Positions 14,006 to 31,596 are shown, numbered from the stretch's first letter. The stretch is 32,000 nt of DNA from Candidatus Helarchaeota ASGARD archaeon Hel_GB_B (GCA_005191425.1 SUPR01000005.1:1-32000), one strand, 5' to 3'. The notes: a model not told the origin generated them from the letters alone. Program-made: numbers and translations.

Positions 14006-14896
14006 ATGAAGTTTAAATTAGAAGGAAATATACCTGCATTAATAACACCTATGAAAAAAAATTTAGAAATAGACTTCGATGCGCTAAGGAGATTCGTAGA
14101 TTTCCAAATTGAAAATGGCGTAGATGCTGTATTACCATGTGGTACTACTGGAGAATCGGCTACAATGAGTCACCAAGAGCATAAGAAGGTAATTGAAACA
14201 GTAATAGACGAAGTTAATGGAAGAATCCCTGTTCTTGCAGGTACTGGCTCAAATTCAACTAAAGAAGCAATTGACTTAACAAAATATGCAGAAGATGTTG
14301 GAGCTGATGCATGTCTTTTAATTTGTCCTTATTATAATAAACCGACACAAAGAGGTCTTATAAATCATTTTAAAATCGTAGCAGAATCTACTAATCTTCC
14401 GGTAGTATTATATAATGTTCCATCTCGTACCGGTAGAAACATTGAAGCTGAAACTACAATTGAATTATCAAAAATTCCGAACATTATTGGAATTAAAGAA
14501 GCCAGCGGAAATTTAGCACAAATAATGAAAATAATCAAAAACACTGAAAATTTCTCGGTTATTTCTGGGGACGATTCTCTAACGTATACAATATATATGT
14601 TGGGTGGAACTGGTGTTATCAGTGTTGCGACTAATATAGTCCCAAGATTAATGAGTGATTTTATTAAAAATTTACGATCTGAAAATTATAAAGATGCGCG
14701 GTCTTATCATTATAAATTATTGGATTTATTTAATGTTTTATTCATTGAAACTAATCCCGGGCCAGTAAAAGAGGCTGCATCATTATTCAAAATTGCTGGA
14801 ATTTCCAACTGGTTTCTTAGACCACCATTAATCAATCCAACACCTGAAAATTCTAAAAAAATCAAGGAAACAATTGATGCCTTAAAGGTTTTTTAA
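14006..14896 (+). CDS. dapA: 4-hydroxy-tetrahydrodipicolinate synthase
   Basis: PALITP, GTTGES, PYYNKP, YNVPSRTG, and IKEASG (Schiff-base Lys). Confidence 0.96.
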   Translation: MKFKLEGNIPALITPMKKNLEIDFDALRRFVDFQIENGVDAVLPCGTTGESATMSHQEHKKVIETVIDEVNGRIPVLAGTGSNSTKEAIDLTKYAEDVGADACLLICPYYNKPTQRGLINHFKIVAESTNLPVVLYNVPSRTGRNIEAETTIELSKIPNIIGIKEASGNLAQIMKIIKNTENFSVISGDDSLTYTIYMLGGTGVISVATNIVPRLMSDFIKNLRSENYKDARSYHYKLLDLFNVLFIETNPGPVKEAASLFKIAGISNWFLRPPLINPTPENSKKIKETIDALKVF

Positions 14897-14914
14897 TTTA
14901 TTAGGGTGAATTAA

Positions 14915-15742
14915 ATGGTAATAAAAGTAGTCGTTTCTGGTGCAGACGGAAATATGGGCTCACTGGTCGTAAAAAATATTATTAAAGATCCTGAAACAGA
15001 ATTATGTGGTGGAATTACAATAAAAGACTCCCCAAATCTTGATAAAGATATTGGATTAGTAGTCGGTCTTGAAAAATGTGGGATTACTTTAGTAGATAAT
15101 ACTGACATTGACTCTTATTTAAAAAATATCAAGCCAGATGTATATGTAGATTTTACAATTGCTTCAGCTGTTAAACAGAATATTAAACATGTTCTTAATA
15201 ACAAAATAAACTTTATTATAGGGACTACTGGGTTAGACCAAGAATTATTAGATTTTATAAATAAACAAGTTAAAATTCAGAATTTAAGTGGTGTAATCTC
15301 TCCAAACATGGCCGTCGGAGTTAATGTCTTCTTCAAAATGGCTCAAATTCTGACTAATTATTTAAAAGGATTTGATATTGAGATTATTGAAGCCCACCAT
15401 AATAGAAAGAGAGATGCACCAAGTGGTACTGCTTTAAAAGTTGCTAATTTAATTGCAGAAGAATTAGACAAAGATTTAAATAAAATTGGCAAGTTTGGTA
15501 GAAAAAGAGGTCCCGAAAAAAGAGTCCCAGGTGAAATTGGTATACATGCAATAAGAGCAGGCGATATAGTTGGCGAACACATGTTATTATTTGCTGGCCC
15601 TGGTGAAAGAATCGAATTAATTCATAGAGCTCATAGCAGACAATGTTTTGCCGAAGGTACTATAAAAGCTATTAAATTCATTTATAATAACAAAAATACT
15701 GGAAAAATTTTTGATATGTTCGATGTACTTGGCTTAAAATAA
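14915..15742 (+). CDS. dapB: 4-hydroxy-tetrahydrodipicolinate reductase
   Basis: GADGNMG, DFT, IGTTG, EAHHNRKRDAPSGTA, RAGDIVGEH and FAEG. Confidence 0.97.
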   Translation: MVIKVVVSGADGNMGSLVVKNIIKDPETELCGGITIKDSPNLDKDIGLVVGLEKCGITLVDNTDIDSYLKNIKPDVYVDFTIASAVKQNIKHVLNNKINFIIGTTGLDQELLDFINKQVKIQNLSGVISPNMAVGVNVFFKMAQILTNYLKGFDIEIIEAHHNRKRDAPSGTALKVANLIAEELDKDLNKIGKFGRKRGPEKRVPGEIGIHAIRAGDIVGEHMLLFAGPGERIELIHRAHSRQCFAEGTIKAIKFIYNNKNTGKIFDMFDVLGLK

Positions 15743-15780
15743 CTATCTTTTTTTTAAAATAAATTAATTAAGGGTTAAAT

Positions 15781-17091
15781 ATGGATTTTTTGGAAAATAA
15801 AGGGTTATCTATCAAAGATAATTTATTGTATATAGGTAATTGGAGCTGTTCAGATTTAGTTAATAAATTTAATACACCGATTTATGTTATCAATGAAAAA
15901 ATTATAGTTAATAGATATCAAACGCTTTATAATACTTTAAAAAAATATTATGATAAAATCAGAATTCACTATGCTGTAAAAGCTAACACTAATATGGCTA
16001 TATTAAAAATATTAAAAAACTTAGGATCTTATTTGGATTGCGTTAGTCCAGGAGAAATATACATCGCCAAAAATGTAGGTTTTAAACCTGAAAAAATATT
16101 ATACACTGGAAATAATTATACTAATGACGAGTTAAAATTTGCTTTAGATAATAAGGTAATGTTAAATTTAGACGCGATATCTCAAATAGACCGATTAATA
16201 TCTACAATTAATAAGGGAAAATTCTCTAATAACAGACCATTGATTTCTTTTAGAGTAAACCCTGAGTTTGGGGGCGGTCATCATGACCATGTCATCACAG
16301 CTGGTCCTAATGTAAAATTTGGAATACTTGAGCGCGATATTATTAGTGCATATAAAAAAGCAATTGACATGGGCTTTACAAAATTTGGAATACACATGCA
16401 CATTGGATCTGGAATTCTGGACGTAGCTATCTTTAAAATTGCTGCAGAAAAATTTTTTAAGATAATTGAATTAATTAAAGCAAATTTGGATATTAATTTC
16501 GATTTTATTGATTTAGGTGGTGGTCTCGGTATTCCATATAATCCAGCAGAGGAACCCCTTGATTTAGATCGATATGCAAAAACCATAATTGAAATTTTCA
16601 AGACATATAATGAAAAATGTTCTTTAGAGAACCCATATTTCTGTATTGAACCAGGTCGGTTTATCGTTGCCGAATCTTGTATTATATTATCAAAAGTTAA
16701 CACAATTAAAAAAATGCGAGATCAGAACTATGCTGGGATCGATGCTGGATTAAATCTATTGATTAGACCATCGCTTTATGGATCTTATCATCATGTAGTT
16801 GTCGCAAATAAAATGGACCAAACTTCAAAAGAAATATATAATATCGCTGGCCCAATTTGTGAATCCGGCGACATATTAGCAAGAAACAGGTCTCTTCCAT
16901 CTATTGAAGAAGGTGATATTATTGCAATTTTAGATGCTGGTGCCTATGGCTTTACAATGAGCTCAAATTATAATATGCGTCCTCGTCCAGCTGAAATTTT
17001 AATCAATGGTAATAAGATAAATATCGTCCGTGAAAAAGAAAGTTTTAAGGATTTAATCACAAAACAGAGAATTCCTGATTATTTACAATGA
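15781..17091 (+). CDS. lysA: Diaminopimelate decarboxylase
   Basis: TPIYV, YAVKAN (PLP Lys), KFG, HMHIGS, DLGGG, EPGR, GPICESGD, GAYG..M.SNYN.RPRPAE. Confidence 0.97.
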   Translation: MDFLENKGLSIKDNLLYIGNWSCSDLVNKFNTPIYVINEKIIVNRYQTLYNTLKKYYDKIRIHYAVKANTNMAILKILKNLGSYLDCVSPGEIYIAKNVGFKPEKILYTGNNYTNDELKFALDNKVMLNLDAISQIDRLISTINKGKFSNNRPLISFRVNPEFGGGHHDHVITAGPNVKFGILERDIISAYKKAIDMGFTKFGIHMHIGSGILDVAIFKIAAEKFFKIIELIKANLDINFDFIDLGGGLGIPYNPAEEPLDLDRYAKTIIEIFKTYNEKCSLENPYFCIEPGRFIVAESCIILSKVNTIKKMRDQNYAGIDAGLNLLIRPSLYGSYHHVVVANKMDQTSKEIYNIAGPICESGDILARNRSLPSIEEGDIIAILDAGAYGFTMSSNYNMRPRPAEILINGNKINIVREKESFKDLITKQRIPDYLQ

Positions 17092-17386
17092 ATATGTTTT
17101 ATCTTTTTGTTAATTTACTTTTTTATTTAAAATATTATTATTAATTTGTCATAATAATTTGTCATAAAAACGTTTCATATGAATAATAATATTCTAAACT
17201 TAATAATTGGAGATATTTTTATATATACAATTAAAAATATAAAAAATATTTGATTAATTATTGATTATAATATCCATTTGATAAAATAAAAAAGATAATA
17301 TAATAATATTCAAAAAATAAATTCAAAAAATAAATAAACAATCTGTAAATAATTTAAAAATTTCTAAAATGGAGTAAAAAACTAAA

Positions 17387-18211
17387 ATGGACAATAAGAA
17401 AATAAATTTAAAGACAAATATAATCGTCTTATTAATATTTATTACTCCGTTAATATTACTTTTTGTTTTATTTTTTCTAGATGATATGCCCCAATTTTTT
17501 GGAGATTTAATTAGGTGCATGTCTACAAGAACTCCATTAATTTTTATTGGTTTACCTAGAATTAATGTATTATTTTTTCTTCCAAAACCATTTCAAATTA
17601 TTCCATTATCTATTCCGCAATTATTAGACCTTATTTTATTCTTTTTTATATTTCATCATATTCAACTTTTAATAGCACCGACAATAAGGCATTATTATTT
17701 AATAAAAGAATATGAATTACCTTTAGATATTGACACATATTTTCTGAATCAAGAAAAAAATGATAATAATTTATCTATAATTGATATTGAAATTAGTCGT
17801 TTTTATAATCTTAAGCGGAATTTTTGGAAAAGTGGGCATTATGGGCATTATGGGCATTATGGGCATTATGGGCATTATGCTATTAAAGAAGGTATTCAGA
17901 ATAGTTTTTTTGTCATAGGATGGCGGAAAATAGTTAATAATAAGAAAACCAAAATTAGTATTAATTTTTTAAATACGAAATTTAAAAATTTCAAATTTTT
18001 TATTAAAAAGAATATAAAAACCTTATTTTCATACAAATTTTTTTTTATTTTCAATAAATTTATTAGATTTTTTATTATTTCATCTAATTTTTACTTAAAT
18101 TCTTTTTTTAAACTTTTAACTAATTTTTCGAGAAAAAAACGATACAAAATAAGGATAAATTGGAAAAAAACAAATCTAAATTTTTTATGGAGGTGTTTAA
18201 ATGGTATTTGA
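17387..18211 (+). CDS. Hypothetical membrane protein with an internal (Gly-His-Tyr)5 repeat
   Basis: 274-codon ORF with hydrophobic N-terminal segments and an F/K/I/N-rich C-terminal tail; overlaps the next start by 11 nt. No family recognised. Confidence 0.6.
   Translation: MDNKKINLKTNIIVLLIFITPLILLFVLFFLDDMPQFFGDLIRCMSTRTPLIFIGLPRINVLFFLPKPFQIIPLSIPQLLDLILFFFIFHHIQLLIAPTIRHYYLIKEYELPLDIDTYFLNQEKNDNNLSIIDIEISRFYNLKRNFWKSGHYGHYGHYGHYGHYAIKEGIQNSFFVIGWRKIVNNKKTKISINFLNTKFKNFKFFIKKNIKTLFSYKFFFIFNKFIRFFIISSNFYLNSFFKLLTNFSRKKRYKIRINWKKTNLNFLWRCLNGI
17834..17878 (+). repeat. Perfect tandem repeat (GGGCATTAT)x5, in frame
   Basis: Five identical 9-bp units read directly from the sequence. Confidence 0.99.
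18189..18195 (+). promoter_or_regulatory. Shine-Dalgarno site GGAGGTG
   Basis: Located 5 nt upstream of the ATG at 18201. Confidence 0.7.
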
Positions 18212-19190
18212 TACAATTCCAATACTTAAAATTGCATTTGAATTAATATTTCCAATAGTATTACTGATATTTCTAATACTTTTAATTGGATTAAGCATAA
18301 TTAATCGGAGAAAAGACCTAAAATTTATGACATTCGATGATTTCTTAAGTGAGTGGTTAATAGACCATGGGCAATCATATAGAGTAGAACAAGCAATGGA
18401 AGAGATGAAAAAAAATCCTGTAGGTGGACTTTATCAACCATTAACTTATAAACTGGGTAAATTATTATCAAGATGGGGTTTTACGGCAAATAAAGTGTCA
18501 ATTATAAATTTAATTTTATCTTTGTTTATCTTATATTTTACTATTATGGCAGGGAATGGCTATAATTTAGATTTATATTCTCAGCAACCATTTTACGGGG
18601 CATTATTATTACCAACAGGTTTACTGGTTCTATTTACTGGGATTCTTGATGGTGTTGACGGGTCAATTGCGCGATTATTAAAAAAGAAAACTAAATGCGG
18701 TGCATGGCTTGATGCAGTAATTGACAGAATTTGTGATACTTTAGTATTAGTCTGTTTATTACCTGGTGGGTTCTTAATACCAATACCAAATTTAAACTTT
18801 GCATGGTTAGTTTGGACGAATGTATTTATTATATTTCTCTATGAATATATGCGAGCTAAACATTATGAAGTGGGACTAAATGTAAGTCAGCCATTTTTAG
18901 GTGAAAGACCTACAAGAGTATTGATCCAGACTACCTTCTTTTTAATATACGGAATTTCGAGTTTTACCGTATTACTGACCTATTTTATTAATCCAACCGC
19001 TACTATCGAAACATCAATCTGGCAGACTTCTCATCCTGGAATCGTTACGTGGTCAATGACTATTTTTCAAGGTGTTCTATTTATAATAATGTCTTATTCA
19101 ATAATTAGAAGTGCTATATGGATTTGGAGAAAATTGAAAAAGATGGACATTGAAAATGGGACAATTAACAACAAAAATGACAGAAATTAA
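18201..19190 (+). CDS. CDP-alcohol phosphatidyltransferase family protein with an N-terminal TM extension
   Basis: Signature DGVDGSIAR-x8-GAWLDAVIDRICD, TAN..S, and multiple TMs. Confidence 0.92.
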   Translation: MVFDTIPILKIAFELIFPIVLLIFLILLIGLSIINRRKDLKFMTFDDFLSEWLIDHGQSYRVEQAMEEMKKNPVGGLYQPLTYKLGKLLSRWGFTANKVSIINLILSLFILYFTIMAGNGYNLDLYSQQPFYGALLLPTGLLVLFTGILDGVDGSIARLLKKKTKCGAWLDAVIDRICDTLVLVCLLPGGFLIPIPNLNFAWLVWTNVFIIFLYEYMRAKHYEVGLNVSQPFLGERPTRVLIQTTFFLIYGISSFTVLLTYFINPTATIETSIWQTSHPGIVTWSMTIFQGVLFIIMSYSIIRSAIWIWRKLKKMDIENGTINNKNDRN

Positions 19191-19223
19191 CTTAGAATTT
19201 GATTATTGGTGAAAAATTAAAAA

Positions 19224-20615
19224 ATGAAAATATCAAAAGTTTTGATTTATGGGACAATAATTGGTATATACTTTGTATTATACCATTTATTTTTTCCTTC
19301 TTGGGTATATTCGCCGATTAAACAAGGAATTAATGGCTTATTTACTGACTTTACAAATAATTGGCCTTTATTGTTTCCTTTTATTGGATTTGTTGCGTTA
19401 GCTGGATTGATTTCTTATTTTGGAATTCATTTTCTCGCTTCATTTGGTAATCTTAATGAATATAAAACTTCATTTACACCAAATATTAGTATTCTTATTC
19501 CTTCAAAAAATGAAAAACCATTATTGGAGAGAACATTAAATTCAATAATTGTTTCTAATTATCCAAAAGACAAAATACAATTAATTCTAATTATTAGCGG
19601 GTCTGAAGACGGCTCTAAAGAATTTTGCAAGGAATTCGCAGATAAAAATAGTAATATTAATATCGCGATATTATCCGACCCAATCAAAAAAAAGGGAAAA
19701 CCTGCTGCCTTAAATTATGGATTAAAATTTGTAAAACATGAAATATGTATTTTTTATGATGCCGGTGTTAGAATAGAAAAAGATACGCTCCAGAGATTAG
19801 TAAATCCACTCTCAGACCCCAAAAATATAGTTACCATTGGCCCAATTATACCGGAAAATTATAAAATAAATAAATGGACAAGGGCACTTCATCTTAGTTA
19901 TGCTATTACTGATGGCGGGTCAATTTTTTTTCATGTAAAAAATAAATTAGGTTCCTCGGCTTATCTTTTTGGTAAAAATTTTTGTATCAGGACTAAAAAT
20001 TTACTTAATTTTAATGGTTTTAATGAAGATGCATTAACTGAGGATTTGTATCTAACCGTCCTTTTGAACATTGATGGAGTTAAAATTAAATTTATATCAA
20101 AAGCTAAAGTTTATGAGTTAGTACCATCAAAATGGCATATAATAAAAAAGCAAAGACAAAGGTGGATAGGGGGTTATGTTGGAGATGTAGATCCGCTTAT
20201 GAAAATGAAAAAAGGAAATAAAAATGGTGCTTCTATTATAATTTCAAGGAATTTAACAATGCTTTTTTTAGGTCATATTGATGCATTTTTCTTTTTTGCA
20301 GTTCCTTTTGCAATTTTATATTGGGTGCTTGGCTTTTATTATATTTTCGGCTGGACTATTACTTTTATGGCGTTTATTTTTGGTTATATTATAAACGCTG
20401 TCCGAAAATATGGTGATAATCATTATATCAATCTTTTATGGATGCCATTAAGTGCATATTTTCATTTATGGGAATTCTCCCTCCAGTTCTCTCTTCCTAG
20501 TGAAATTTCGTGGGAGAGAACACCAATTTTATTAGAAAAAGATCAAGAAGAAATAAAAAATCTATTAGAGTATAAAAAAGATCAAAATCAAGGAGATATA
20601 TATGAAAATTTCTAA
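19224..20615 (+). CDS. Membrane GT2 glycosyltransferase, processive type (PgaC/IcaA/CesA-like topology), paralog 1
   Basis: Two N-terminal TMs; ILIPSKNE, GKPAALN, FYDAG, LTED, QRQRW; C-terminal TMs. Confidence 0.9.
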   Translation: MKISKVLIYGTIIGIYFVLYHLFFPSWVYSPIKQGINGLFTDFTNNWPLLFPFIGFVALAGLISYFGIHFLASFGNLNEYKTSFTPNISILIPSKNEKPLLERTLNSIIVSNYPKDKIQLILIISGSEDGSKEFCKEFADKNSNINIAILSDPIKKKGKPAALNYGLKFVKHEICIFYDAGVRIEKDTLQRLVNPLSDPKNIVTIGPIIPENYKINKWTRALHLSYAITDGGSIFFHVKNKLGSSAYLFGKNFCIRTKNLLNFNGFNEDALTEDLYLTVLLNIDGVKIKFISKAKVYELVPSKWHIIKKQRQRWIGGYVGDVDPLMKMKKGNKNGASIIISRNLTMLFLGHIDAFFFFAVPFAILYWVLGFYYIFGWTITFMAFIFGYIINAVRKYGDNHYINLLWMPLSAYFHLWEFSLQFSLPSEISWERTPILLEKDQEEIKNLLEYKKDQNQGDIYENF

Positions 20616-21969
20616 AGTTATATTTTATGGATCAATAGTAGCAACATATTTTATTGTTTTACACATTTTCTTTCCTCCATGGCTAAATTCTCCTATAAAA
20701 CAAGGAATTGACAGTTTATTTACCAACTTTTCAGCAAATTGGCTTTTAATATTTCCATTCATTGGTCTGGTAGCATTGTGTGGACTTTTAATTTACTATG
20801 GTATACATTTTGTTGCATCTTTTGGAATTAGCTACAAATCTAAAAAGTACTATTACCCATCTATTAGCATAATCATTGCATCAAAAAATGAAAAACCATT
20901 ATTAGCCCGAACTTTGAAATCCATTATGAATACAGAGTATCCAAAAGATAAAATTCAAATTATCACAGTTACAAGTGGGTCTACTGACTCATCTACAGAA
21001 TTCTGCGAAAAATTTGCAAAAGAAAACAAAAATATCGATATGATTGTTCTTTCTAAATCATTATCAAAAAAGGGTAAACCCGCAGCATTAAACTATGGAT
21101 TTGAATTTGTTAAAAACGATATTTGCATTTTTTATGATTCCGGAAATGTTATAACTTCAAAAACTCTTGCTGAATTAGTTGAGCCTTTTCAATATGGGAA
21201 TCATAAGGTTACTATTGGACCTATGATAATAGAAAATTGGAATCAAAATAAATGGACAAGGGCTGCTGCTTTAACATACGTTTTTTCAGCTGGTGGAAAT
21301 ATGTATTTTCACGTAAAAAATAAACTAGGTTCTTCTGCTTATCTTTTCGGTAGAAATTTTGCAATAAAAACTAAATTACTTAAGGACTTAGGTGGTTTTA
21401 ACGAAAATTCATTAACCGAAGACCTTTATTTAACTGTTTTATTAAACCTTGAAGGCGAAAAAATATTATTTGTACCTAAAGCAAGAGCTTACGATTTAAC
21501 TCCAAATAATTGGAACGCTATTAAAAAGCAACGCACTCGATGGGTAGGTGGATATGTTGGTGATGCACCCGACTTAACTAAACTAAAAAAAGGAAATAAA
21601 AATGGACAGTCTATTATTATTTCTAGGAATTTATCAATGTTACTATTACATCATCTTGATGTCTGTCTATTAGTAATTACAGGGTTTGTTGTTTTCTACG
21701 CATTGATCGGCTTTTACTATATGTTTGCTTGGACTTTATCTCTTTTCATTTTTGTTTTTGGATATCTATTCAATGGCATAAGAAAATACGGAGATAAACA
21801 CTATAGTCTATTTCTATGGGCTCCTGTTAGTTCACGCATAACTCTTTTTATGTTTAGTCTACAATTTACATTACCTGCGGCACCTGACATCTCATGGGAA
21901 AAAACTCCAATGATTTTAGAAAAAAGTCAAGAAGAGATAGAATCAATAATTTCAGCCACTATAAATTAA
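20602..21969 (+). CDS. Membrane GT2 glycosyltransferase, processive type, paralog 2 (tandem duplicate)
   Basis: Colinear with paralog 1 from MKISKV onward; IASKNE, GKPAALN, FYDSG, LTED, QRTRW; 14-nt overlap with paralog 1. Confidence 0.9.
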   Translation: MKISKVIFYGSIVATYFIVLHIFFPPWLNSPIKQGIDSLFTNFSANWLLIFPFIGLVALCGLLIYYGIHFVASFGISYKSKKYYYPSISIIIASKNEKPLLARTLKSIMNTEYPKDKIQIITVTSGSTDSSTEFCEKFAKENKNIDMIVLSKSLSKKGKPAALNYGFEFVKNDICIFYDSGNVITSKTLAELVEPFQYGNHKVTIGPMIIENWNQNKWTRAAALTYVFSAGGNMYFHVKNKLGSSAYLFGRNFAIKTKLLKDLGGFNENSLTEDLYLTVLLNLEGEKILFVPKARAYDLTPNNWNAIKKQRTRWVGGYVGDAPDLTKLKKGNKNGQSIIISRNLSMLLLHHLDVCLLVITGFVVFYALIGFYYMFAWTLSLFIFVFGYLFNGIRKYGDKHYSLFLWAPVSSRITLFMFSLQFTLPAAPDISWEKTPMILEKSQEEIESIISATIN

Positions 21970-21981
21970 AAATCTCCCCTA

Positions 21982-21988
21982 TTTTTTT
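21982..21988 (+). terminator. Possible oligo(dT) terminator after the CDP-AP/GT2 operon
   Basis: CCCCTA followed by T7 and further T runs, 12 nt after the stop. Confidence 0.4.
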
Positions 21989-22286
21989 ATTTTTATCTTT
22001 AATATTTCTTAATTCTAAGAGTTAAAACAAATAATAACTAAAAATTATAATTCAATTACTAATAATTCTTTATATTAATTCTTTAACTAAAAGAATAAAG
22101 CATTAAATCAACATATAACTATAACCATGTTAATAGAAACAGTCCAATTGATTATTTAACTCCATATTTTTTTTCATATGAATAAGAAATGGGTTATCTT
22201 TTTATATTTCTATTATATTAAAATTACAGTAAATTTTTCACAAAATTACAAATAATTCTAAAAATTTATAGTCAAAGGTAATCAAA

Positions 22287-23474
22287 TTGACTAATCAAAG
22301 CATATACGAAGATTTTAGGATTCAAATTGAGGGCACTTCAAGAGATTGTAAATTATACCATGATCTGTGTATAAAGGAAGATTATGATATAGACCAAACA
22401 ATTAAGGAATCAAATCTGGACGAAATTCCATATGTAAATTGGAATTATTTTAAAGAATCAAATGGAAAATATCACGATCTTTTAAGAATTCCTTATAATA
22501 ACCTCTCATATTGGACAATAAGCAGTAGTACAACAGGCGACCCTAGCATTGTCGGGAGAGGTGATATTGACATTGAAATTTTTAAGAATAATTACAAGAA
22601 AATTTTTCATGAATACTCTTCTATGGATATTATTAAAAAATTAATTTTATTTGCGCCATCAATCCGATTTATGAATAGAATGCCTGGATCTTGGTATGGA
22701 AAACGTGGATATCTTTTCTATAGAGATATAACTGAAATTTGGAAAAATTATGATATAACTTATCTACTAAAATTTAATTTTCAAAAAGTAATTTTATATT
22801 ATTTATCACATTTTAAAGGTAAAGCCTTTATTGAACTTGATGGAAGTCTTCTTAAAAAAAGCTTAAAAAAAGTAGAGAAGAGCAAGATCCCAACCCTTAT
22901 TGCAAATTCAGCTCCTCTTATGTATAAAAATTTCACAGACTATCTGAAAAAATATAAAAGTGGATTTGATATGGGTGAGAATTTTTATGTACAAACTGGT
23001 GGAGGCGGCTGGAACGGTATAAAAGGACGGGTAAAATTAAGATATGAAATTGATAAAGCAGATTTCTTTGAGAAATTAATGGATTTTTTTAATATTCCCA
23101 TTGAAAATTTTGCTGATTTGTTTGGTGCTACTGAAACACCTATTGCTGCTGGAGGACATTGGAGTAAAAAGTATAATGACATCATACTTCATTTAGATAA
23201 AAATCAAGGGCGAATTATTGCTAGAGATATTGAAACACTTGAAAAAATTAATAAAACAAAAAATCCCGGAGTCCTAGAAGTATTAACTCCATATGGGGTA
23301 AATACATATGCAGGAATTTCAGTTCTATTGGATGATATAATAGAAATAGTCGACTTTAATAGATGTGAGGAATGTGGAAGAGAAGGTATAATTTTTAGAG
23401 TAGTTGGAAAATTAACCCCTGAAATAGGTAAAGGTTGTACTTCATTTTACAATTTATATCCGTTTAAAAAGTAA
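22287..23474 (+). CDS. LuxE-like acyl-protein synthetase (ANL adenylating superfamily)
   Basis: SSSTTGDPS loop, TGGGGW, DLFGATE, VLLDD, and C-terminal GK...EIGKGC with the Cys; TTG start after AGGT-AATCAAA. Confidence 0.78.
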   Translation: MTNQSIYEDFRIQIEGTSRDCKLYHDLCIKEDYDIDQTIKESNLDEIPYVNWNYFKESNGKYHDLLRIPYNNLSYWTISSSTTGDPSIVGRGDIDIEIFKNNYKKIFHEYSSMDIIKKLILFAPSIRFMNRMPGSWYGKRGYLFYRDITEIWKNYDITYLLKFNFQKVILYYLSHFKGKAFIELDGSLLKKSLKKVEKSKIPTLIANSAPLMYKNFTDYLKKYKSGFDMGENFYVQTGGGGWNGIKGRVKLRYEIDKADFFEKLMDFFNIPIENFADLFGATETPIAAGGHWSKKYNDIILHLDKNQGRIIARDIETLEKINKTKNPGVLEVLTPYGVNTYAGISVLLDDIIEIVDFNRCEECGREGIIFRVVGKLTPEIGKGCTSFYNLYPFKK

Positions 23475-23490
23475 AATGGCTCAAATCTTT

Positions 23491-24264
23491 TTATGTAGAA
23501 ATATCTTTCTTAGCCAAATTTGAATATAATTCTTTATTTGTTTGGTATTGATAAACTCGTTCAAGTCCACGTTTAATTGATACCTTTCTTCCGCTCGTCA
23601 AAACATGTATGGATGATAGTGTTTTAACTTTACCAAAACCAGTTTTTTTAATATAATATAATATTGCATCTGTAAAAATTTTATCGATCCCCCATGATTT
23701 TGGAGGATTTTTAAATCCGCCAACTTTAAAAAAAATATTTCTTCTGACAATTATATTACATCCCGCAAGTTCTGGATAACCAAATAAATACCTTATAAAA
23801 TAATAGAGATAACTCCCCCAATTATAAAAAAAAAATGTGGTAATTGTAAACTGTTTGTTTCCTATTTTTATTGAGAATTTGGTCCCATTATTATATTTAA
23901 ATCTTGCACTACATGCAAATAGGTCTTTTTTCTTTTTAAATAAATTGTATATTTTTTCTAAAAATAAAGGCGGTATTATAGTATCAGCGTCCAGAAATAT
24001 AAGAATATCTCCTGATGTTTTCGGAACAACATAATTGACCTGCAAGGCTTTACCTCGTTGGGGTGTAATTATGACTGTTGCAAATTTTTGTGCAATTTTT
24101 ACAGTATTGTCTGTACTTTGACCATCAGCTATAAAGACTTCAAATGGTACATTGCATCTCTGCTTTTTAATTGAATATAAAGTTCTCTTAATATTTGACT
24201 CTTCATTGAAAGTTGGAATTACAATTGAGATTTCTGGTTTTATTTTTAAATTTTGTGAATTCAT
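23491..24264 (-). CDS. Soluble GT2 glycosyltransferase (track start 24309; ATG 24264 more likely)
   Basis: ISIVIPTFNEE, ADGQSTD, FLDADT (intact DxD), G.NI..RR..F..VGGF and TSGRK. Confidence 0.9.
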   Translation of the reverse strand: MNSQNLKIKPEISIVIPTFNEESNIKRTLYSIKKQRCNVPFEVFIADGQSTDNTVKIAQKFATVIITPQRGKALQVNYVVPKTSGDILIFLDADTIIPPLFLEKIYNLFKKKKDLFACSARFKYNNGTKFSIKIGNKQFTITTFFFYNWGSYLYYFIRYLFGYPELAGCNIIVRRNIFFKVGGFKNPPKSWGIDKIFTDAILYYIKKTGFGKVKTLSSIHVLTSGRKVSIKRGLERVYQYQTNKELYSNLAKKDIST

Positions 24265-24378
24265 AAGCAATCGAGAATTCCATTTAATAAAGTAAATAAA
24301 ATACATCAATTTATCAATATTTGTATTTATTTACCAAAATGTTAATTTAATAAATTTTCGAGTTCAGATGGAGTCAAT

Positions 24379-25740
24379 TTGGCATATTATTTAAAAATTG
24401 GTTATAGATATTTAGCTAGAAGAAAAATAAGGAGTATTCTTACTATTTTAGCTGTTTTATTAGGTGTATCGATATTAATGGGTACTCTTGTCGCCAATGA
24501 CTCTGTTAAAGGTACTCTAGAATATCATTTAGCAAAAAAGTTTGGTTATACTGATATAATTTTAATTAACAGTTCAGGTTATTATTCAAACTCAATTAAT
24601 TACAATGAAATAAGAAAAGATTTGGATAATTTAAAATATCTTGGCTTTATTTGGACCTCTCAAATGAAAGAAAGCCGAAATATAGCATTCCAACCTAATA
24701 TTTCTATTAGCAAAAGTTCATGGATACCTATTGTGGGCGTTGATACGCATAATCCATATGATTCAAAATTTGGGTCTATTTCTATAAATTCTTCTATAAA
24801 TTCTAATTTTACTACTTTAAATGACTTATTATTACATCCTCTTTATGTGAATTGCTGTGTAATAAATACAAAAACGGCAAATCAGTATAATGTTTCGGTA
24901 GGTGATATAGTCTACATTTATCCAGAAGTCCCAAGTGGGCCTATTGATTGGCAAAATTCAAGTAGTTGGATACAATTAAAAATTACTGGAATAATTGACG
25001 ATCATGGTAAAGCATTTGATTATATTGTCCCGCCTGTTAATGATATTTGGCAAATTAAAGATATTGACTATGCAATTTATGTAAATATGTCTATTGCACA
25101 TCAATTATTAACAAACAGCGATAATGAACTTAAAGTAAACAACATAGCAATTCATTCAAATTCATTACAAAATATTGATTCAACGCTAACTCAAATAATG
25201 ACCTATCTAAATAATACTATTCCAACTAATTCGTTATATGGTTTTAATTTAAAATCCTTTTTTGCAAGCGAAATTAATAATATTTTTGGTTTGATAATGA
25301 GCGTTTTAATTATTTTTTCAGGAATTTCATTACTAGTTTGTGCTATATTAATAAAAAATATGTTTGAAGTTGCAGTTGAAGAGCAGTTAGAAGAAATTGG
25401 TATAATGAGAGCAATTGGTATTTCAAAATATGGTATCTTTATTATTTATATTACCCAAATTTTATTTATATCATTAATTGGATCTATATTAGGTATTATA
25501 ATAGGTATATTTATGAGTACATCCTTTTTTAATTCAATTCAATATGTTTCTTCTATATTAAATCCTTCATTATTCGAATTACTTGGTAGTAATTTTGAGA
25601 TATTTATTACTATTACTCCTCAAACTTTAATACTCTCTTTTATTTCAGGTACGTTAATCAGTTTGATTTTTGGATTATCACCAGCATATAAAGCAAGTCA
25701 AATACAAATAATTGATGCTCTAAATCCTCGAAAAAGGTGA
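24379..25740 (+). CDS. ABC transporter permease, MacB/FtsX type, half 1
   Basis: R.K.RS.LT...V..GV, a large sequon-rich extracytoplasmic domain, EIGIMRAIG and PAYKAS...IDAL. Confidence 0.92.
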   Translation: MAYYLKIGYRYLARRKIRSILTILAVLLGVSILMGTLVANDSVKGTLEYHLAKKFGYTDIILINSSGYYSNSINYNEIRKDLDNLKYLGFIWTSQMKESRNIAFQPNISISKSSWIPIVGVDTHNPYDSKFGSISINSSINSNFTTLNDLLLHPLYVNCCVINTKTANQYNVSVGDIVYIYPEVPSGPIDWQNSSSWIQLKITGIIDDHGKAFDYIVPPVNDIWQIKDIDYAIYVNMSIAHQLLTNSDNELKVNNIAIHSNSLQNIDSTLTQIMTYLNNTIPTNSLYGFNLKSFFASEINNIFGLIMSVLIIFSGISLLVCAILIKNMFEVAVEEQLEEIGIMRAIGISKYGIFIIYITQILFISLIGSILGIIIGIFMSTSFFNSIQYVSSILNPSLFELLGSNFEIFITITPQTLILSFISGTLISLIFGLSPAYKASQIQIIDALNPRKR

Positions 25741-27414
25741 ATGTATAAGAAAATGAAACGACTATTAAATTATGGATTTGGCATTTTATTGATAACATTC
25801 GGTATAATTCTCACTTTTAATTTCTATTATGACTGGTTTAAAATCGATTTTATGAATGATACTTACATTTTTTTAACTGGAGGGATATTATTAGTAATTA
25901 TTGGTATATATCTAACTTTAGACATATTAAAAAAGATCGGCATTATTTTATTTGGGATATCTTTAATGGTACTTGGATTATTCCAACTAATTCATGGCAT
26001 TCAAAATATAGTGAACATTGCTGATAATTTTTCTAATTATTTAAATATAGCAGAATTATTTATTGGTGGTATTTTTCTATTATTAGGGACTATCTTTTTA
26101 GGATGTTTTTTACTTCCAGTTTTTATTAAAGGACTGGCATTTATATTATCGCCAATACTTACTAAAATGAAAATAATTGTATATAGAAATATAAATCGCA
26201 ATAAAAAAAGATCTCAAAACACATTTACAATGATTGCATTAGGATTAGCATTTATTATTATGATCGGGACGGTACTTGAATCTTTAGATGCTGGCGTTTA
26301 TCCCGGAGCAAAATTAGAACTTGGCGGAGATATACAAATTGGTGAAATATGGAACACACATGTTTTTGGATATTTAAATATGAGCAATGAAATAAAACAA
26401 ATAGACCATGTTAAGGAAGTAATACCTGTCCATGTAGAATGGATTTCTATTAATTATAACAAAAATTTTTCTGAAAGCATCTATTTATTTATAATTAATA
26501 CGACTGAATACGCCAAATTGCATTCTAAAAATACATTATTAACTTTTATTGAGCCAAAAGGTATCTCAATTGATCAATTCATTCATTTATTAGACCAAGA
26601 AAATAGTACAATTATTCAATATGAATTAGCTAAAGAGACCAATATTAAATGTGGAGATAAGGTAAATTTAAGTATAGATTCATTTAATACCGAATTAAAT
26701 GTGGTCGGAATTTTTGGACGGATGCCTGGACTACGATTTACTTTTGTTGATTACTGGGATGCAATGGCTGTAATAATATCTTGGAAAACATTATTCAACT
26801 TAATGGGTATAAATGCCTCAGAATATGATTCATATGCTGGGAGTAGGACAATAGCTTATTGGCTGGGGTTAGATAGTATATATAATGATCAAAAAGTAAT
26901 TTCAATTCTGAAGACTCAAGTATATTCAAAAATAGGCGTAAATTTAGATAGTGATGATATAAAGACTGCTCGATCCAGAGTTGAAGAATATGGCGGTATA
27001 ATAAAAGTAATAAATGGTACTTTAACAAACATTTTACTATTTTCTTTATTAATTTCATTAATTGGATTAGCTATTACCATGTTTATGAATGTCCATCAAC
27101 GTAAAAGAGAAATTGGAATTTTAAGAAGCATAGGAATTAGTAAAAATGAAATTATAAAAATGATTTTCTCTGAATGTTTTATAATAAGCTTTTATGGTTT
27201 ATTATTTGGTACGTTAACAGGAATTTTCGTTGGCTTTATTATGATAAATTATTTTCCATTTATTTATTTTTTACCTGCAATATTTACCATCGATTATAAT
27301 TTAATTGTCTTGACAATTTTTTTGGTATTTGTATTTACAGTAATATCTTCTTTAATACCTGCCTATTTGTCTAATAGAATAAGTATTATTGATGCAATTA
27401 GATCAAAAAGATGA
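25741..27414 (+). CDS. ABC transporter permease, MacB/FtsX type, half 2 with extra N-terminal TMs
   Basis: RN..RNKKRS..T, RKREIGILRSIG and PAY..NRISIIDAIR; same frame as half 1, separated by one TGA. Confidence 0.92.
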   Translation: MYKKMKRLLNYGFGILLITFGIILTFNFYYDWFKIDFMNDTYIFLTGGILLVIIGIYLTLDILKKIGIILFGISLMVLGLFQLIHGIQNIVNIADNFSNYLNIAELFIGGIFLLLGTIFLGCFLLPVFIKGLAFILSPILTKMKIIVYRNINRNKKRSQNTFTMIALGLAFIIMIGTVLESLDAGVYPGAKLELGGDIQIGEIWNTHVFGYLNMSNEIKQIDHVKEVIPVHVEWISINYNKNFSESIYLFIINTTEYAKLHSKNTLLTFIEPKGISIDQFIHLLDQENSTIIQYELAKETNIKCGDKVNLSIDSFNTELNVVGIFGRMPGLRFTFVDYWDAMAVIISWKTLFNLMGINASEYDSYAGSRTIAYWLGLDSIYNDQKVISILKTQVYSKIGVNLDSDDIKTARSRVEEYGGIIKVINGTLTNILLFSLLISLIGLAITMFMNVHQRKREIGILRSIGISKNEIIKMIFSECFIISFYGLLFGTLTGIFVGFIMINYFPFIYFLPAIFTIDYNLIVLTIFLVFVFTVISSLIPAYLSNRISIIDAIRSKR

Positions 27415-27418
27415 TAAT

Positions 27419-28099
27419 ATGAAAGATAAAATTTTAGAGGTCAGACATGTATCAAAAGAATATAAATTAGGAAAAATAAAAGTTAAGGCACTTAATGATG
27501 TATCTTTTTCTCTTGAGAGAGGTGAATTGATTTCAATAGTTGGCCCATCAGGTTCAGGTAAAACCACACTATTAAACTTAATAGGTGCCTTGGACAAACC
27601 TACATCTGGAAGTATTTACATTGAAGGTACTGAAATTAATAGTTTAAATGAAAAACAACTGACAAAAATTAGACGCGATAAAATCGGTTTTATTTTCCAA
27701 TTTTATAACTTAATTCCAGTTTTAAGCGCATTTGAAAATGTTGATTTACCAATGATGGCTGCATCAATAAAGAAAAAAGAGAGAAATAAAAGAGCATTAG
27801 AACTTTTACAGATAGTTGGATTAACGAATAGAAAAAACCACCGACCTGAAGAATTAAGTGGTGGAGAACGACAACGCGTAGCAATTGCTAGGTCACTAGC
27901 AAACAATCCTTCAATTATTCTTGCAGATGAACCTACTGGCGATCTTGACACAAAAACTGGAGAAGAAATAATCAATTATATTAAAAATTCAAATGTATCA
28001 ACTATCATTGTCACTCATGATCCAGTTGTTGCTATGGCAACAAGTAAAATAATCTACCTAAAAGATGGGTCTATTGAAAAAATAGAGAAAATAAATTAA
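27419..28099 (+). CDS. ABC transporter ATP-binding protein, LolD/MacB type (track start 27389; ATG 27419 more likely)
   Basis: GPSGSGKT, FIFQFYNL, LSGGERQR, ILADEPTGDLD and VTHD. Confidence 0.96.
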   Translation: MKDKILEVRHVSKEYKLGKIKVKALNDVSFSLERGELISIVGPSGSGKTTLLNLIGALDKPTSGSIYIEGTEINSLNEKQLTKIRRDKIGFIFQFYNLIPVLSAFENVDLPMMAASIKKKERNKRALELLQIVGLTNRKNHRPEELSGGERQRVAIARSLANNPSIILADEPTGDLDTKTGEEIINYIKNSNVSTIIVTHDPVVAMATSKIIYLKDGSIEKIEKIN

Positions 28100-28111
28100 T
28101 TTTCTAACCTA

Positions 28112-29296
28112 CTAATTATAATTTTCAATTAATCGAATTGCAGCTTGCTTAGTTGCTTCTACGGTCGGTACTAATGCAAATCGAACAAACTTTTCACCAG
28201 GATTAATCCCATTAAATTCCCTACTAATCCATGCACCTGGAGTACAAACAATTGCTATTTTTTCTGAAAGTAGTTTTTTTGCGAAGTCAACTGAATTCAT
28301 GCCCTCTGGAACTTTCTGCCAAATGTAAATAGTTGCCTTAGGTATACATTTAGGCAGTCCAATTTTCGTAAAAGCATCAATCATAGTATCTCGTTTTATA
28401 GCATAAAGTTCACGCATCTTTTTTACATGTTCTTCATCTTTAAGAGCTGCAATAGCTGCTTCTTGAATAAATCTTGGAGTTCCTGAATCTATATTTGTCT
28501 TAACTTTTTTAAATAAGGATACCACATTTTCATCGCCTGCAACCCAGCCAACACGATAGCCTGTCATATTACTCCGCTTTGAGAGACTATGAAATACTAT
28601 TACATTTTCTCTGGTAAATTCTAAAATGCTTCTTGGTTTTTCATTATAATAATTCTCTGTATATGCTTCATCTGATCCAATTACAATATTGTTATCATGA
28701 GCAAAATCAATAACCTCCTTAAAAAATTTCTCAGGTGCCATCGCTGCTGTAGGATTATTCGGGTAATTGATCCAAATCAGTTTAACTTTTTTAATTATTT
28801 TCTGATCAATATTTTTAAAATCAGGTAAAAAATTATTTTCCTCTAATAATGGAAGGAAATATGGGACTCCTTCAGCAAAAATAGTCCCCCGTTCATATGG
28901 GGGATATCCTGGATTGGGTATTAATACGATATCACCTGGATTTATAATAGACTCATGAAAATTAAAAATAGCCTCTTTAGAGCCTATGGTCGAACCTATT
29001 TCTTTTTCTGGATCAAGATCTATATTAAATCTTTTTTTATACCATTCTTGAATTGTTTCTCTATATTCAACTGACCCAATATAGCTCGGATATCCGCTCG
29101 ATTTATATTTATCAATAGCTTCTTTAGCAGCTTTTCTGATAAATTCGGGCGTAGGGTCTTTTGGGTCTCCCACTCCAAAATCTGTGGGGATGATTCCTTC
29201 CTCTTTTAGTTTATCAACTAATCTATCTACATCCGCAAATGCATAACTACCTATAGACTTTAACCTACTACTACCTTCTATTTTCAATTTTAACAC
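28112..29296 (-). CDS. dapL: PLP aminotransferase of the DAP pathway, probably LL-diaminopimelate aminotransferase (DapL/DapC-like)
   Basis: GVGDP, GSKEAI, NYPNNPT, DEAY, SLSKRSNMTGYRVG; directly downstream of dapF. DapL versus succinyl-DAP DapC cannot be resolved by eye. Confidence 0.7.
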   Translation of the reverse strand: MLKLKIEGSSRLKSIGSYAFADVDRLVDKLKEEGIIPTDFGVGDPKDPTPEFIRKAAKEAIDKYKSSGYPSYIGSVEYRETIQEWYKKRFNIDLDPEKEIGSTIGSKEAIFNFHESIINPGDIVLIPNPGYPPYERGTIFAEGVPYFLPLLEENNFLPDFKNIDQKIIKKVKLIWINYPNNPTAAMAPEKFFKEVIDFAHDNNIVIGSDEAYTENYYNEKPRSILEFTRENVIVFHSLSKRSNMTGYRVGWVAGDENVVSLFKKVKTNIDSGTPRFIQEAAIAALKDEEHVKKMRELYAIKRDTMIDAFTKIGLPKCIPKATIYIWQKVPEGMNSVDFAKKLLSEKIAIVCTPGAWISREFNGINPGEKFVRFALVPTVEATKQAAIRLIENYN

Positions 29297-29336
29297 ACTT
29301 TGAAATTCAATTAAAAATTAAAATAGATTTTCTTTT

Positions 29337-30194
29337 TTAAATTATAATGTGTATTGTCCCCTCAAACACTTCTTCTGCGGGTCCAGTCATGTAGACATCT
29401 GTACGATTCTCCCAAAAAATTTCAAGTTCTCCCCCTTTTAAGTGAACTATTGCCTTATTTTCAATTTTTGAATTAAGTATTGCAGCTACAACTGAGGCAC
29501 ATGCACCAGTCCCACAAGCTAAAGTCTCTCCGACCCCTCTTTCCCATACCCGTATTTTAATTTCTTTTTTGTTTAAGATTTGTACAAATTCTACATTTAT
29601 TCGGTCAGGAAACTTTTTATCAATCTCAATTTTTCTCCCTAAATTTATATCAATTTCATTTATATCATCAACAAAAACTATACAATGCGGATTGCCCATA
29701 TTTACACACGTTATATGGACTACCTCATTATCAACAATAAACTCTTCATTTATGACTTTACCTTCAGGTCCAATCATTGGTATCTGTGATCTTAATAGTC
29801 TAGGAGTTCCCATATTAACTTTAATACCAACAATTTCTCCGTTCTCAAACAATAATTCTGGAACAATCAGCCCTGCTTTTGTTTCAATTTTATAGTATTT
29901 TTTCTTTTTAATATTATGTGTATAAAGATATTTTACAAACATCCTAATACCGTTTCCGCACATCTCAGCTTCGGAACCGTCCGGGTTGAAAATTTGCATT
30001 TGGTAATCAAATTGGTCTGAAGTTGGAGATTGTGCAAATAAAATTCCATCAGACCCAATAGAAAAATGTCTTTGACATAATTTTCTTGCTAATAAACTTT
30101 TAGTCCTAAAATTATCTGGGAGTTTGTTTTCATCTATATTAATAATTATGTAATCATTTCCTAAACCATGATATTTATAAAAATGGATGTCCAC
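29337..30194 (-). CDS. dapF: Diaminopimelate epimerase
   Basis: KYHGLGNDY, FNPDGSEAEMCGNG, MGNPH, NVEF, and ERGVGETLACGTGA (both catalytic Cys); GTG start. Confidence 0.97.
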   Translation of the reverse strand: MDIHFYKYHGLGNDYIIINIDENKLPDNFRTKSLLARKLCQRHFSIGSDGILFAQSPTSDQFDYQMQIFNPDGSEAEMCGNGIRMFVKYLYTHNIKKKKYYKIETKAGLIVPELLFENGEIVGIKVNMGTPRLLRSQIPMIGPEGKVINEEFIVDNEVVHITCVNMGNPHCIVFVDDINEIDINLGRKIEIDKKFPDRINVEFVQILNKKEIKIRVWERGVGETLACGTGACASVVAAILNSKIENKAIVHLKGGELEIFWENRTDVYMTGPAEEVFEGTIHIII

Positions 30195-30261
30195 GAACTT
30201 ATCTCTCTCCAGATTTTAAACAAAATAAATAAAATAAGATAAATTAATTGATTGTAAAAAA

Positions 30262-31398: not shown

Positions 31399-31596
31399 AA
31401 AAATCACTCTCTTTATATTTTAACAATCCATATCATATCTATACTTTTTATTATATTAAATTATAAATCATGAAAATAATGATTTAATGATAAATTGGTG
31501 TTTTTTTATTTTAATATTACTCATTAAAAATCTTATCAATACAAAAATATTTAAAAAAAATCGAAAAAATCAATTTTTGGTTAAAAAAATAGAAGA

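Follow-up and report, generated by a model that had tools for sequence, protein, structure and literature searches.

A conserved gene cluster in the lysine locus of a Helarchaeota archaeon and its predicted role in membrane glycoconjugate synthesis

We analysed a 32,000-nucleotide (nt) stretch of DNA from the Asgard archaeon Candidatus Helarchaeota Hel_GB_B (GCA_005191425.1 SUPR01000005.1:1-32000; hereafter the window), which is contig C139 of a 3.5-Mb assembly (completeness 93.7%). The stretch is AT-rich (~27% GC), and the data sets listed as containing it are DNA metagenomes of hydrothermal vents and marine sediments, with no RNA data set among them. Bounded on both sides by lysine-pathway genes, it carries nine contiguous open reading frames at 17387-28099, which a preliminary description had joined into a single candidate pathway for making and exporting a glycosylated, possibly acylated phospholipid or lipid-anchored glycan. 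Our analysis divides them into two modules. The core, at 17387-24309, consists of orf1, a CDP-alcohol phosphatidyltransferase (CDPOH), two membrane-bound family 2 glycosyltransferases (GT2s), a LuxE-type ligase and a small GT2; the trio of ATP-binding cassette (ABC) transporter genes at 24379-28099 is a separate module. The features are listed below, with the basis for each assignment.

17387..18211, plus strand: orf1, small membrane protein; no Pfam or NCBIfam family
18201..19190, plus strand: CDP-alcohol phosphatidyltransferase (CDPOH); PF01066 CDP-OH_P_transf, 49.9 bits
19224..20615, plus strand: membrane GT2 paralogue a; Pfam and NCBIfam profiles, motifs
20602..21969, plus strand: membrane GT2 paralogue b; Pfam; 14-nt overlap with paralogue a
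21970..22286, no strand: AT-rich spacer, 317 bp, 17% GC
22287..23474, plus strand: LuxE-type adenylate-forming ligase ('B type'); PF04443, 60.1 bits
23491..24309, minus strand: small GT2 (GT2c), no membrane domain; PF00535, 104.9 bits
24379..28099, plus strand: MacB/LolCDE-like type VII ABC trio; two FtsX permeases and an ATPase
24379-25740, plus strand: first FtsX permease of the trio; FtsX and MacB_PCD
25741-27414, plus strand: second FtsX permease of the trio; FtsX and MacB_PCD
27389-28099, plus strand: ABC ATPase of the trio; LolD/MacB-like, probable start 27419
17833..17879, plus strand: tandem repeat in the orf1 tail; TRF, 9-bp unit
14006..17091, plus strand: left boundary, dapA, dapB and lysA
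28112..30194, minus strand: right boundary, LL-diaminopimelate-aminotransferase-like gene (dapL) and dapF

The coordinates and gene families given in the preliminary description agree with our open reading frame calls and with the Pfam assignments of the window proteins. So do the lysine-pathway genes that it had placed on both sides, which are dapA, dapB and lysA to the left and dapL and dapF to the right, and the close packing of the first four genes: orf1 and CDPOH overlap by 11 nt, CDPOH and GT2 paralogue a are 33 nt apart, and the two membrane GT2s overlap by 14 nt. A scan for promoters and terminators returned 99 matches where 82 were expected; it relies on the sigma-70 consensus and carries no information for an archaeon with AT-rich DNA.

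Conservation of the core among Asgard archaea

The preliminary description had expected the genes of a real pathway to be co-located in related genomes, and the genes for CDPOH, the membrane GT2s, the LuxE-like ligase and the small GT2 do lie together in many of them. The core is syntenic in four relatives from the same family. Three of these (loci L054, L055 and L056), whose CDPOH proteins are 63-69% identical to that of the window, are collinear with the window from a beta-lactamase-like gene through dapA-dapB-lysA. Between lysA and dapL they carry orf1 and CDPOH, then a pair of membrane GT2 genes followed by a third in minus orientation, and finally the LuxE-like gene, whose product is 70-80% identical to that of the window, and the small GT2. 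The fourth relative, G001, belongs to the same genus and carries the core across two contig ends, with orf1 following lysA at the end of contig C30 and dapF-dapL-GT2c-LuxE at the end of contig C7. Absence of the core from G001 had been considered, as whole-genome searches returned no GT2 or CDPOH match; it is ruled out by the core genes at these two ends, and the most likely reason for the missing middle of the core is a gap in the assembly where the GT2 paralogues lie in tandem.

A genome from another family of the same order (G005; locus L063, G005:C11) has dapA-dapB-lysA-coiled-coil-dapL contiguous and on one strand, with no glycan genes; most likely, therefore, the core was inserted into the dap locus in the window's family. 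The dap locus of the window (14006-31407) is also rearranged relative to G005, the window's family having the glycan cluster after lysA and an inverted dapL-dapF-coiled-coil segment. The coiled-coil gene (30262-31407 in the window) accompanies the dap genes in all relatives seen.

The centre of the core is better conserved than the rest of it. Members of a sister family (f4; 20-kb regions from 14 genomes) carry CDPOH, one membrane GT2 and a LuxE-type gene head to tail. The LuxE protein found there is of an 'A type' that is ~35% identical to that of the window, and two f4 loci also encode a 'B type' at 66-68%. Variable accessory genes surround these three, and include those for a hexapeptide acyltransferase whose N-terminal domain is unassigned, a small GT2, a CE4 deacetylase, another GT2, radical-SAM and B12-radical-SAM enzymes, an alpha/beta hydrolase, a UDP-galactopyranose mutase and a sulfotransferase. 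The richer of these versions resemble the deacetylate-and-reacylate chemistry of Nod factors, PNAG or lipid A, with no homology to those systems. CDPOH and the membrane GT2 are both present in 16 of 31 f4 genomes and both absent from the other 15, so that neither occurs alone, and their presence or absence is patchy within genera. A search of the window's own genome for a second glycan locus that would gather homologues of these accessory genes found none; those of the A-type LuxE, the hexapeptide acyltransferase and the CE4 deacetylase are isolated singletons on three contigs.

We extended the survey with one genome per species and obtained 61 CDPOH-GT2 loci, all from metagenome-assembled genomes of Promethearchaeota, of which 56 had at least 2 kb of sequence downstream. 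A membrane GT2 is the next gene after CDPOH, on the same strand and mostly 20-70 nt away, at 55 of these 56 loci; a LuxE-type gene directly follows the GT2 at 34 of them and lies within 7 kb at 38. None of the 56 has ABC or dap genes, and no ABC genes were found at any of the 61. The accessory genes vary strongly from one genome to the next. The adjacency is unlikely to be an artefact of a single clonal lineage, as the 61 loci represent as many species and are 47-57% identical. That the genes have stayed adjacent at this level of protein divergence and are gained and lost jointly argues strongly for a shared function. All occurrences of the module found to date are in Asgard archaea.

Enzymes of the core

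CDPOH is a member of PF01066 (49.9 bits, with a gathering cut-off of 22), and the catalytic motif D-x2-D-G-x2-A-R-x8-G-x3-D-x3-D is intact in its translation. Residues D150, G151, D153, G154, A157, G167, D171 and D175 are invariant in an alignment of 22 sequences (A4), and R158 is nearly so. A ~90-aa N-terminal extension comprises one transmembrane helix and a conserved soluble stretch. The top-scoring NCBIfam models are all inositol-phosphate lipid synthases (AIPS, PIPS and DIPPS), each below its cut-off; the best, the AIPS equivalog NF040950, gives 77.8 bits against a cut-off of 180. AIPS, bacterial PIP synthase and IPCT/DIPPS (PDB 4o6m, 4mnd and 5d91) are the nearest known systems, as best-scoring models and PDB sequences that share the Pfam family and catalytic motif. 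CDPOH differs from them in falling far under the equivalog cut-offs and in its extension, which has conserved residues of its own. An inositol-type acceptor is our best guess from these profile scores. We found 83 CDPOH homologues, all at least 43% identical, and every one with a named organism is from an Asgard archaeon, under labels such as Helarchaeota, Lokiarchaeota and Promethearchaeota.

Beside this gene, the genome encodes three other CDP-OH transferases, which are PssA-like, AIPS-like (contig C2, 105 bits) and an IPCT/DIPPS-like fusion. The window's CDPOH is therefore a fourth, extra paralogue with a dedicated role. More generally, the preliminary description would have been undermined if these genes had grouped with housekeeping enzymes, and we find the core genes to be accessory paralogues. 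The fusion is a 519-aa nucleotidyltransferase/CDP-OH transferase (G000:C97; L004 1381-2940, minus strand) that scores 284 bits against a Thermococcales cut-off of 580. Together with two inositol-1-phosphate synthase genes in the same genome, it suggests that this Asgard archaeon from sediment metabolises CDP-inositol.

The two membrane GT2 paralogues are 59% identical to one another and both contain QxxRW, which reads QRQRW in paralogue a, as well as the D, DxD and TED motifs. Among 30 aligned sequences (A3), D129, D179, E273-D274 and Q310-R311-x-R313-W314 are invariant. The AlphaFold2 (AF2) model of paralogue a (pLDDT 89.9) has a cellulose-synthase-like fold with two N-terminal and four C-terminal transmembrane helices. 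It matches PcManGT, BcsA, hyaluronan synthases, PgaC, IcaA, NodC, YdaM and plant CSLC/CSLA with template-modelling (TM) scores of 0.5-0.63, and is equally close to the cyanobacterial beta-monoglucosyl-diacylglycerol synthase, a non-polymerising lipid glucosyltransferase. As polymer synthases and a lipid glucosyltransferase match equally well, the fold cannot separate a polymer from a glycolipid product; the model makes a lipid acceptor plausible. The two proteins score 75.2 and 87.2 bits with their best NCBIfam model, PgaC/IcaA (TIGR03937), for which the equivalog cut-off is 422.3. These enzymes had been called processive in the preliminary description; the QxxRW motif and the family on which that term was based are indeed present, but QxxRW is no proof of processivity, and the motif is present in the non-processive glucosylceramide synthase.

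The GT2s share a GT-A domain, the D/DxD/TED/QxxRW motifs and flanking transmembrane helices with minimal membrane synthases such as PgaC/IcaA, NodC, hyaluronan synthase and BcsA, and with the beta-monoglucosyl-diacylglycerol synthase. However, they are only 13-22% identical to these proteins, lack a PilZ domain and have no partner genes of the PgaA/B/D or BcsB kind, and the Asgard genes occur as two to three tandem paralogues fixed beside a CDP-alcohol transferase. All named organisms among the 156 GT2 homologues found are Asgard archaea. On a phylogenetic tree the CDPOH-linked GT2s, including both window paralogues and a third paralogue, form one clade (support 100/99) apart from the GT2s of same-order families that have no CDPOH. 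Within it, paralogue a clusters with its orthologues P0208 and P0209 (100/99) and paralogue b with P0205 and P0207 (100/96). In L054-L056 the third membrane GT2, on the minus strand, occupies the position of the window's spacer. The window has lost this gene, and a tblastn search of 21970-22286 with the third GT2 of L054 found no remnant of it. In one genome of the sister family (L037/L123, G028:C47, 2017-10099) the CDP-OH transferase is surrounded by three copies of the membrane GT2, each interleaved and paired with a protein of ~283-334 aa; these partners belong to one family with no Pfam match.

The small GT2 has a GT-A fold, and orthologues 54-68% identical to it lie in the matching clusters of relatives. 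Judged by where the relatives begin to align, its true start is probably at 24264.

The ligase belongs to PF04443 (60.1 bits, with a gathering cut-off of 24.9) and lies far below the NF052244 equivalog (25.4 bits, cut-off 550). It is a protein of 395 aa whose AF2 model (pLDDT 91.9) has a short C-terminal tail and no ANL C-terminal subdomain. Its best fold matches are three Swiss-Prot LuxE proteins (TM-scores 0.70-0.75), with the PaaK family ranking after these; a sequence search of the PDB gave no match. Twelve residues from the end of the protein stands G381-K382-G383-C384, of which G381 and C384 are invariant and K382 nearly so in an alignment of 31 sequences (A2). S79-S80, G239-W242 and K246 are likewise invariant, the adenylation motifs are intact by sequence, and a CxxC hairpin has been added. 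The 128 homologues found include no named organism from outside the Asgard archaea. In LuxE the corresponding motif is TRxxKGCxLS, and Cys364 accepts the acyl group from the adenylate (PMC9157457). With the LuxE of the LuxC-LuxE fatty acid reductase, the window ligase shares its Pfam family, fold, missing ANL C-terminal subdomain and KGC cysteine, and its conserved lysine may correspond to LuxE Lys238 (PMC9157457).

Despite these shared features the ligase is only 15-19% identical to LuxE acyl-protein synthetases, which do not have the CxxC hairpin, and its own genome lacks LuxC, LuxD and luciferase. Specifically, LuxC (PF05893) had no match in that genome (93.7% complete), and none was seen in related clusters; an acyl-cysteine formed by the ligase would therefore have to serve another acceptor. 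A LuxE-type gene embedded among glycosyltransferases is also known from the Aeromonas group II flagellin-glycosylation island, whose authors suggest a fatty-acid-like addition to the glycan (PMC7874193). That island additionally has LuxC, ACP and FabG and decorates a protein-linked nonulosonic acid, none of which is found at the window cluster.

An independent contextual link between the B-type LuxE and membrane-lipid head-group metabolism comes from another family, f2. Here the window's LuxE type occurs with a CDP-OH paralogue, phosphatidylserine decarboxylase, geranylgeranyl reductase, an HDAC-type deacetylase and an alpha/beta hydrolase. At L069 (G006:C71, 5226-13631), and also at L070 and L072, this conserved lipid neighbourhood of a Hel-type family includes a flavin reductase, and the LuxE is 58-61% identical to that of the window. 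A LuxE homologue was not detected at the matching lipid-gene locus in G002.

A proposed pathway and its alternatives

Together, these observations suggest that the core is an accessory membrane-glycoconjugate module, that its most likely product is a phospho-glycolipid or else a lipid-anchored glycan of short length, with acylation via the KGC cysteine of the ligase, and that the ABC trio is independent of it. We give this reading a probability of roughly 0.55. The families, intact motifs, folds, synteny and co-occurrence are as described above, and from them we infer substrates, an order of steps and a product. CDPOH would join an isoprenoid lipid to a polyol through a phosphodiester, the best guess being CDP-archaeol and inositol-phosphate; alternatively, it may act in the reverse direction and move a CDP-activated alcohol onto a lipid-bound sugar. 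The membrane GT2 paralogues, translationally linked to CDPOH, would then add beta-linked sugars to the CDPOH lipid, and the small soluble GT2 could attach one more. The LuxE-type enzyme would adenylate a carboxylic acid, load it onto Cys384 as a thioester and pass the acyl group to the head group, a recipient proposed because no LuxC reductase was found. In orf1, the membrane domain conserved at the N-terminus may serve as a lineage-specific accessory. What remains of the pathway in the preliminary description is thus its co-located CDPOH, GT2s, LuxE-like ligase and small GT2; its ABC export arm is not retained.

The mycobacterial phosphatidylinositol-mannoside (PIM) operon, with the PI synthase gene pgsA1, an acyltransferase gene and the gene for PimA, is organised along similar lines. 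In both cases a CDP-alcohol transferase stands beside a glycosyltransferase and an acyl-modifying enzyme, in keeping with a scheme in which a phospho-polyol lipid is formed, glycosylated and acylated. There is no sequence orthology between the two, and they differ in several respects: the window glycosyltransferases are membrane GT2s of the cellulose-synthase fold, whereas PimA-type enzymes are soluble GT4s; acylation in the window would use LuxE-type acyl-AMP/acyl-Cys chemistry rather than an acyl-CoA acyltransferase; and the setting is archaeal, presumably with isoprenoid ether lipids.

Several considerations count against this proposal. No enzyme of the core reaches an equivalog model, and the substrate, donor sugar, acid and product are all predicted from family-level resemblance. 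The GT2 fold matches BcsA, HAS, PgaC, NodC and CSLC as well as it does a lipid glucosyltransferase. The window version lacks the CE4 deacetylase and hexapeptide acyltransferase that are common in f4 clusters, and the chemistry may therefore differ between versions of the cluster. In addition, the related genomes in our counts are non-independent samples, and co-transcription of the core genes is a prediction from gene order.

The closest competitor, possible though clearly less probable, is a synthase-dependent surface polysaccharide. In this case the GT2s would be processive synthase-translocases, like those for PNAG, chitin, cellulose or hyaluronan, that build a long glycan and extrude it, CDPOH would supply a phospholipid primer or teichoic-acid-like phospho-alcohol side groups, and the LuxE-type enzyme would esterify or amidate the polymer. 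Such a role is consistent with the TED and QxxRW motifs and six predicted transmembrane helices, with the fold matches to BcsA, hyaluronan synthases, PgaC, IcaA, NodC and YdaM (TM-scores 0.5-0.63) and with PgaC/IcaA as best NCBIfam model, and CE4 polysaccharide deacetylases, as in PgaB and NodB, are frequent in f4 clusters. However, at 75-87 bits the GT2s fall far short of the PgaC cut-off of 422, and QxxRW also occurs in non-processive lipid glucosyltransferases. Stepwise addition is a better fit than a single homopolymer synthase for two to three conserved tandem paralogues that each have orthologues of their own. A lipid product is indicated both by the near-invariant pairing with a phospholipid head-group enzyme and by the lipid genes found around this type of LuxE. 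A more ambitious form of the lipid reading, in which CDPOH, the membrane GT2 and the LuxE-type ligase make an Asgard-specific acylated glycosyl-(inositol-)phospholipid and the module is exchanged between lineages as a mobile surface-remodelling unit, is speculative, and we think it unlikely.

Still less probable is the nine-gene system of the preliminary description, in which the MacB/LolCDE-like transporter extracts or exports the lipid-linked product in the window organism, as a local and facultative recruitment. The two permeases are unlike each other and score 62 and 71 bits with FtsX and 24-25 bits with MacB_PCD, just below its cut-off; the ATPase, whose true start is probably at 27419, judged from where relatives begin to align, scores 132 bits with ABC_tran and 248.7 with LolD, against 307.75. 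These profile scores place the trio in the MacB/LolCDE type VII family, at family level only. With LolCDE and MacB it shares two FtsX permeases with MacB-like extracytoplasmic domains and a LolD-like ATPase; it differs in falling below all equivalog cut-offs, in being unlinked to the biosynthetic core and in its host, an archaeon with no outer membrane. The second permease also differs in an extra hydrophobic N-terminal stretch of ~150 residues (25741-26200) ahead of the MacB-type topology, as read from the translation. Relatives in G003, G009, G023 and G036 are single open reading frames of 730-760 aa that apparently fuse parts of both permeases.

Type VII ABC transporters such as LolCDE and MacB handle lipidated envelope substrates, and in the window and L054 the trio is divergent from the small GT2 at a distance of 70-115 bp; both points favour an export arm. 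Among the close relatives, however, the trio is at this site only in those two. In L055 and L056 the small GT2 runs straight into dapL and dapF; G001 (93% complete) lacks ABC genes in the interval from dapL to the small GT2, and has no homologue of the second permease genome-wide at E<=1e-20. The trio is therefore missing at this site in three of the four close relatives, and it is missing from all 61 CDPOH-GT2 loci of the wider survey. Elsewhere its distribution does not follow that of the core: it forms a stand-alone three-gene operon with no glycan genes nearby in G002 and G006, strong homologues occur in G008, G023 and G036, where no close GT2 or CDPOH match was found, and among f4 genomes with the core the sole homologue that is stronger than E 1e-60, in G009, is on another contig. 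We conclude that the ABC trio is an independent module that landed beside the core in part of the window's family.

The weakest explanation, a chance neighbourhood of unrelated envelope genes from separate pathways, could draw on the mixed orientation, with the small GT2 on the opposite strand, and on the strongly varying accessory content, but is hardly tenable given CDPOH-GT2 adjacency at 55 of 56 loci, perfectly matched presence and absence in 31 genomes and a LuxE-type gene directly after in 34 cases.

Every enzyme of the core that we propose to act in glycolipid synthesis belongs to a known superfamily. The preliminary description did not recognise the combination as a described archaeal pathway, and our literature search likewise found no description of it, nor of an Asgard intact polar lipid that would match the cluster. 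New here are the compact Hel-type version in the dap locus, the quantified CDPOH-GT2 adjacency, the LuxE cysteine motif in a setting with no LuxC, and the separation of the ABC trio, which prevents a wrong pathway annotation. Asgard membranes are central to models of eukaryogenesis, yet to our knowledge almost nothing has been described of their polar head groups or of the glycoconjugates on the surface of these archaea. A conserved and patchily distributed Asgard cluster that couples a head-group enzyme, membrane glycosyltransferases and acyl loading predicts an unreported lipid class and offers a short, testable gene set. With six or seven genes and no radical-SAM tailoring enzymes, the window version is the simplest form to express.

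orf1 and genes bordering the core in the sister family

The first gene of the core, orf1, has no Pfam or NCBIfam match. Only its N-terminal ~120 aa are conserved, and all 18 invariant residues of the alignment (A1) are among the first 119; the remainder is a variable low-complexity tail. Positional homologues with the same 11-nt overlap onto the CDPOH start are found in L054, L055 and L056, and one lies at the contig end in G001. An atlas search with the N-terminus returned scores of only 0.86-0.87, under the useful range, and a complex prediction pairing orf1 residues 1-135 with the CDP-alcohol transferase scored 0.00, which speaks neither for nor against binding. The tail contains a perfect 9-bp tandem repeat (TRF; 5.2 copies, 100% matches, score 94) that encodes (Gly-His-Tyr)n. 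The repeat falls in a gap of the alignment and is absent from the three aligned relatives, and it is thus a recent lineage-specific expansion.

In f4 (L027, L035, L036 and many of L073-L133) the core often abuts tandem zinc-ribbon proteins and radical-SAM/SPASM enzymes. Other neighbours there are B12-binding radical-SAM triplets, U32-family proteins and an ABBA (Orf2-type) aromatic prenyltransferase. These neighbours look like a separate anaerobic gene set for prenyl-aromatic synthesis or tailoring.

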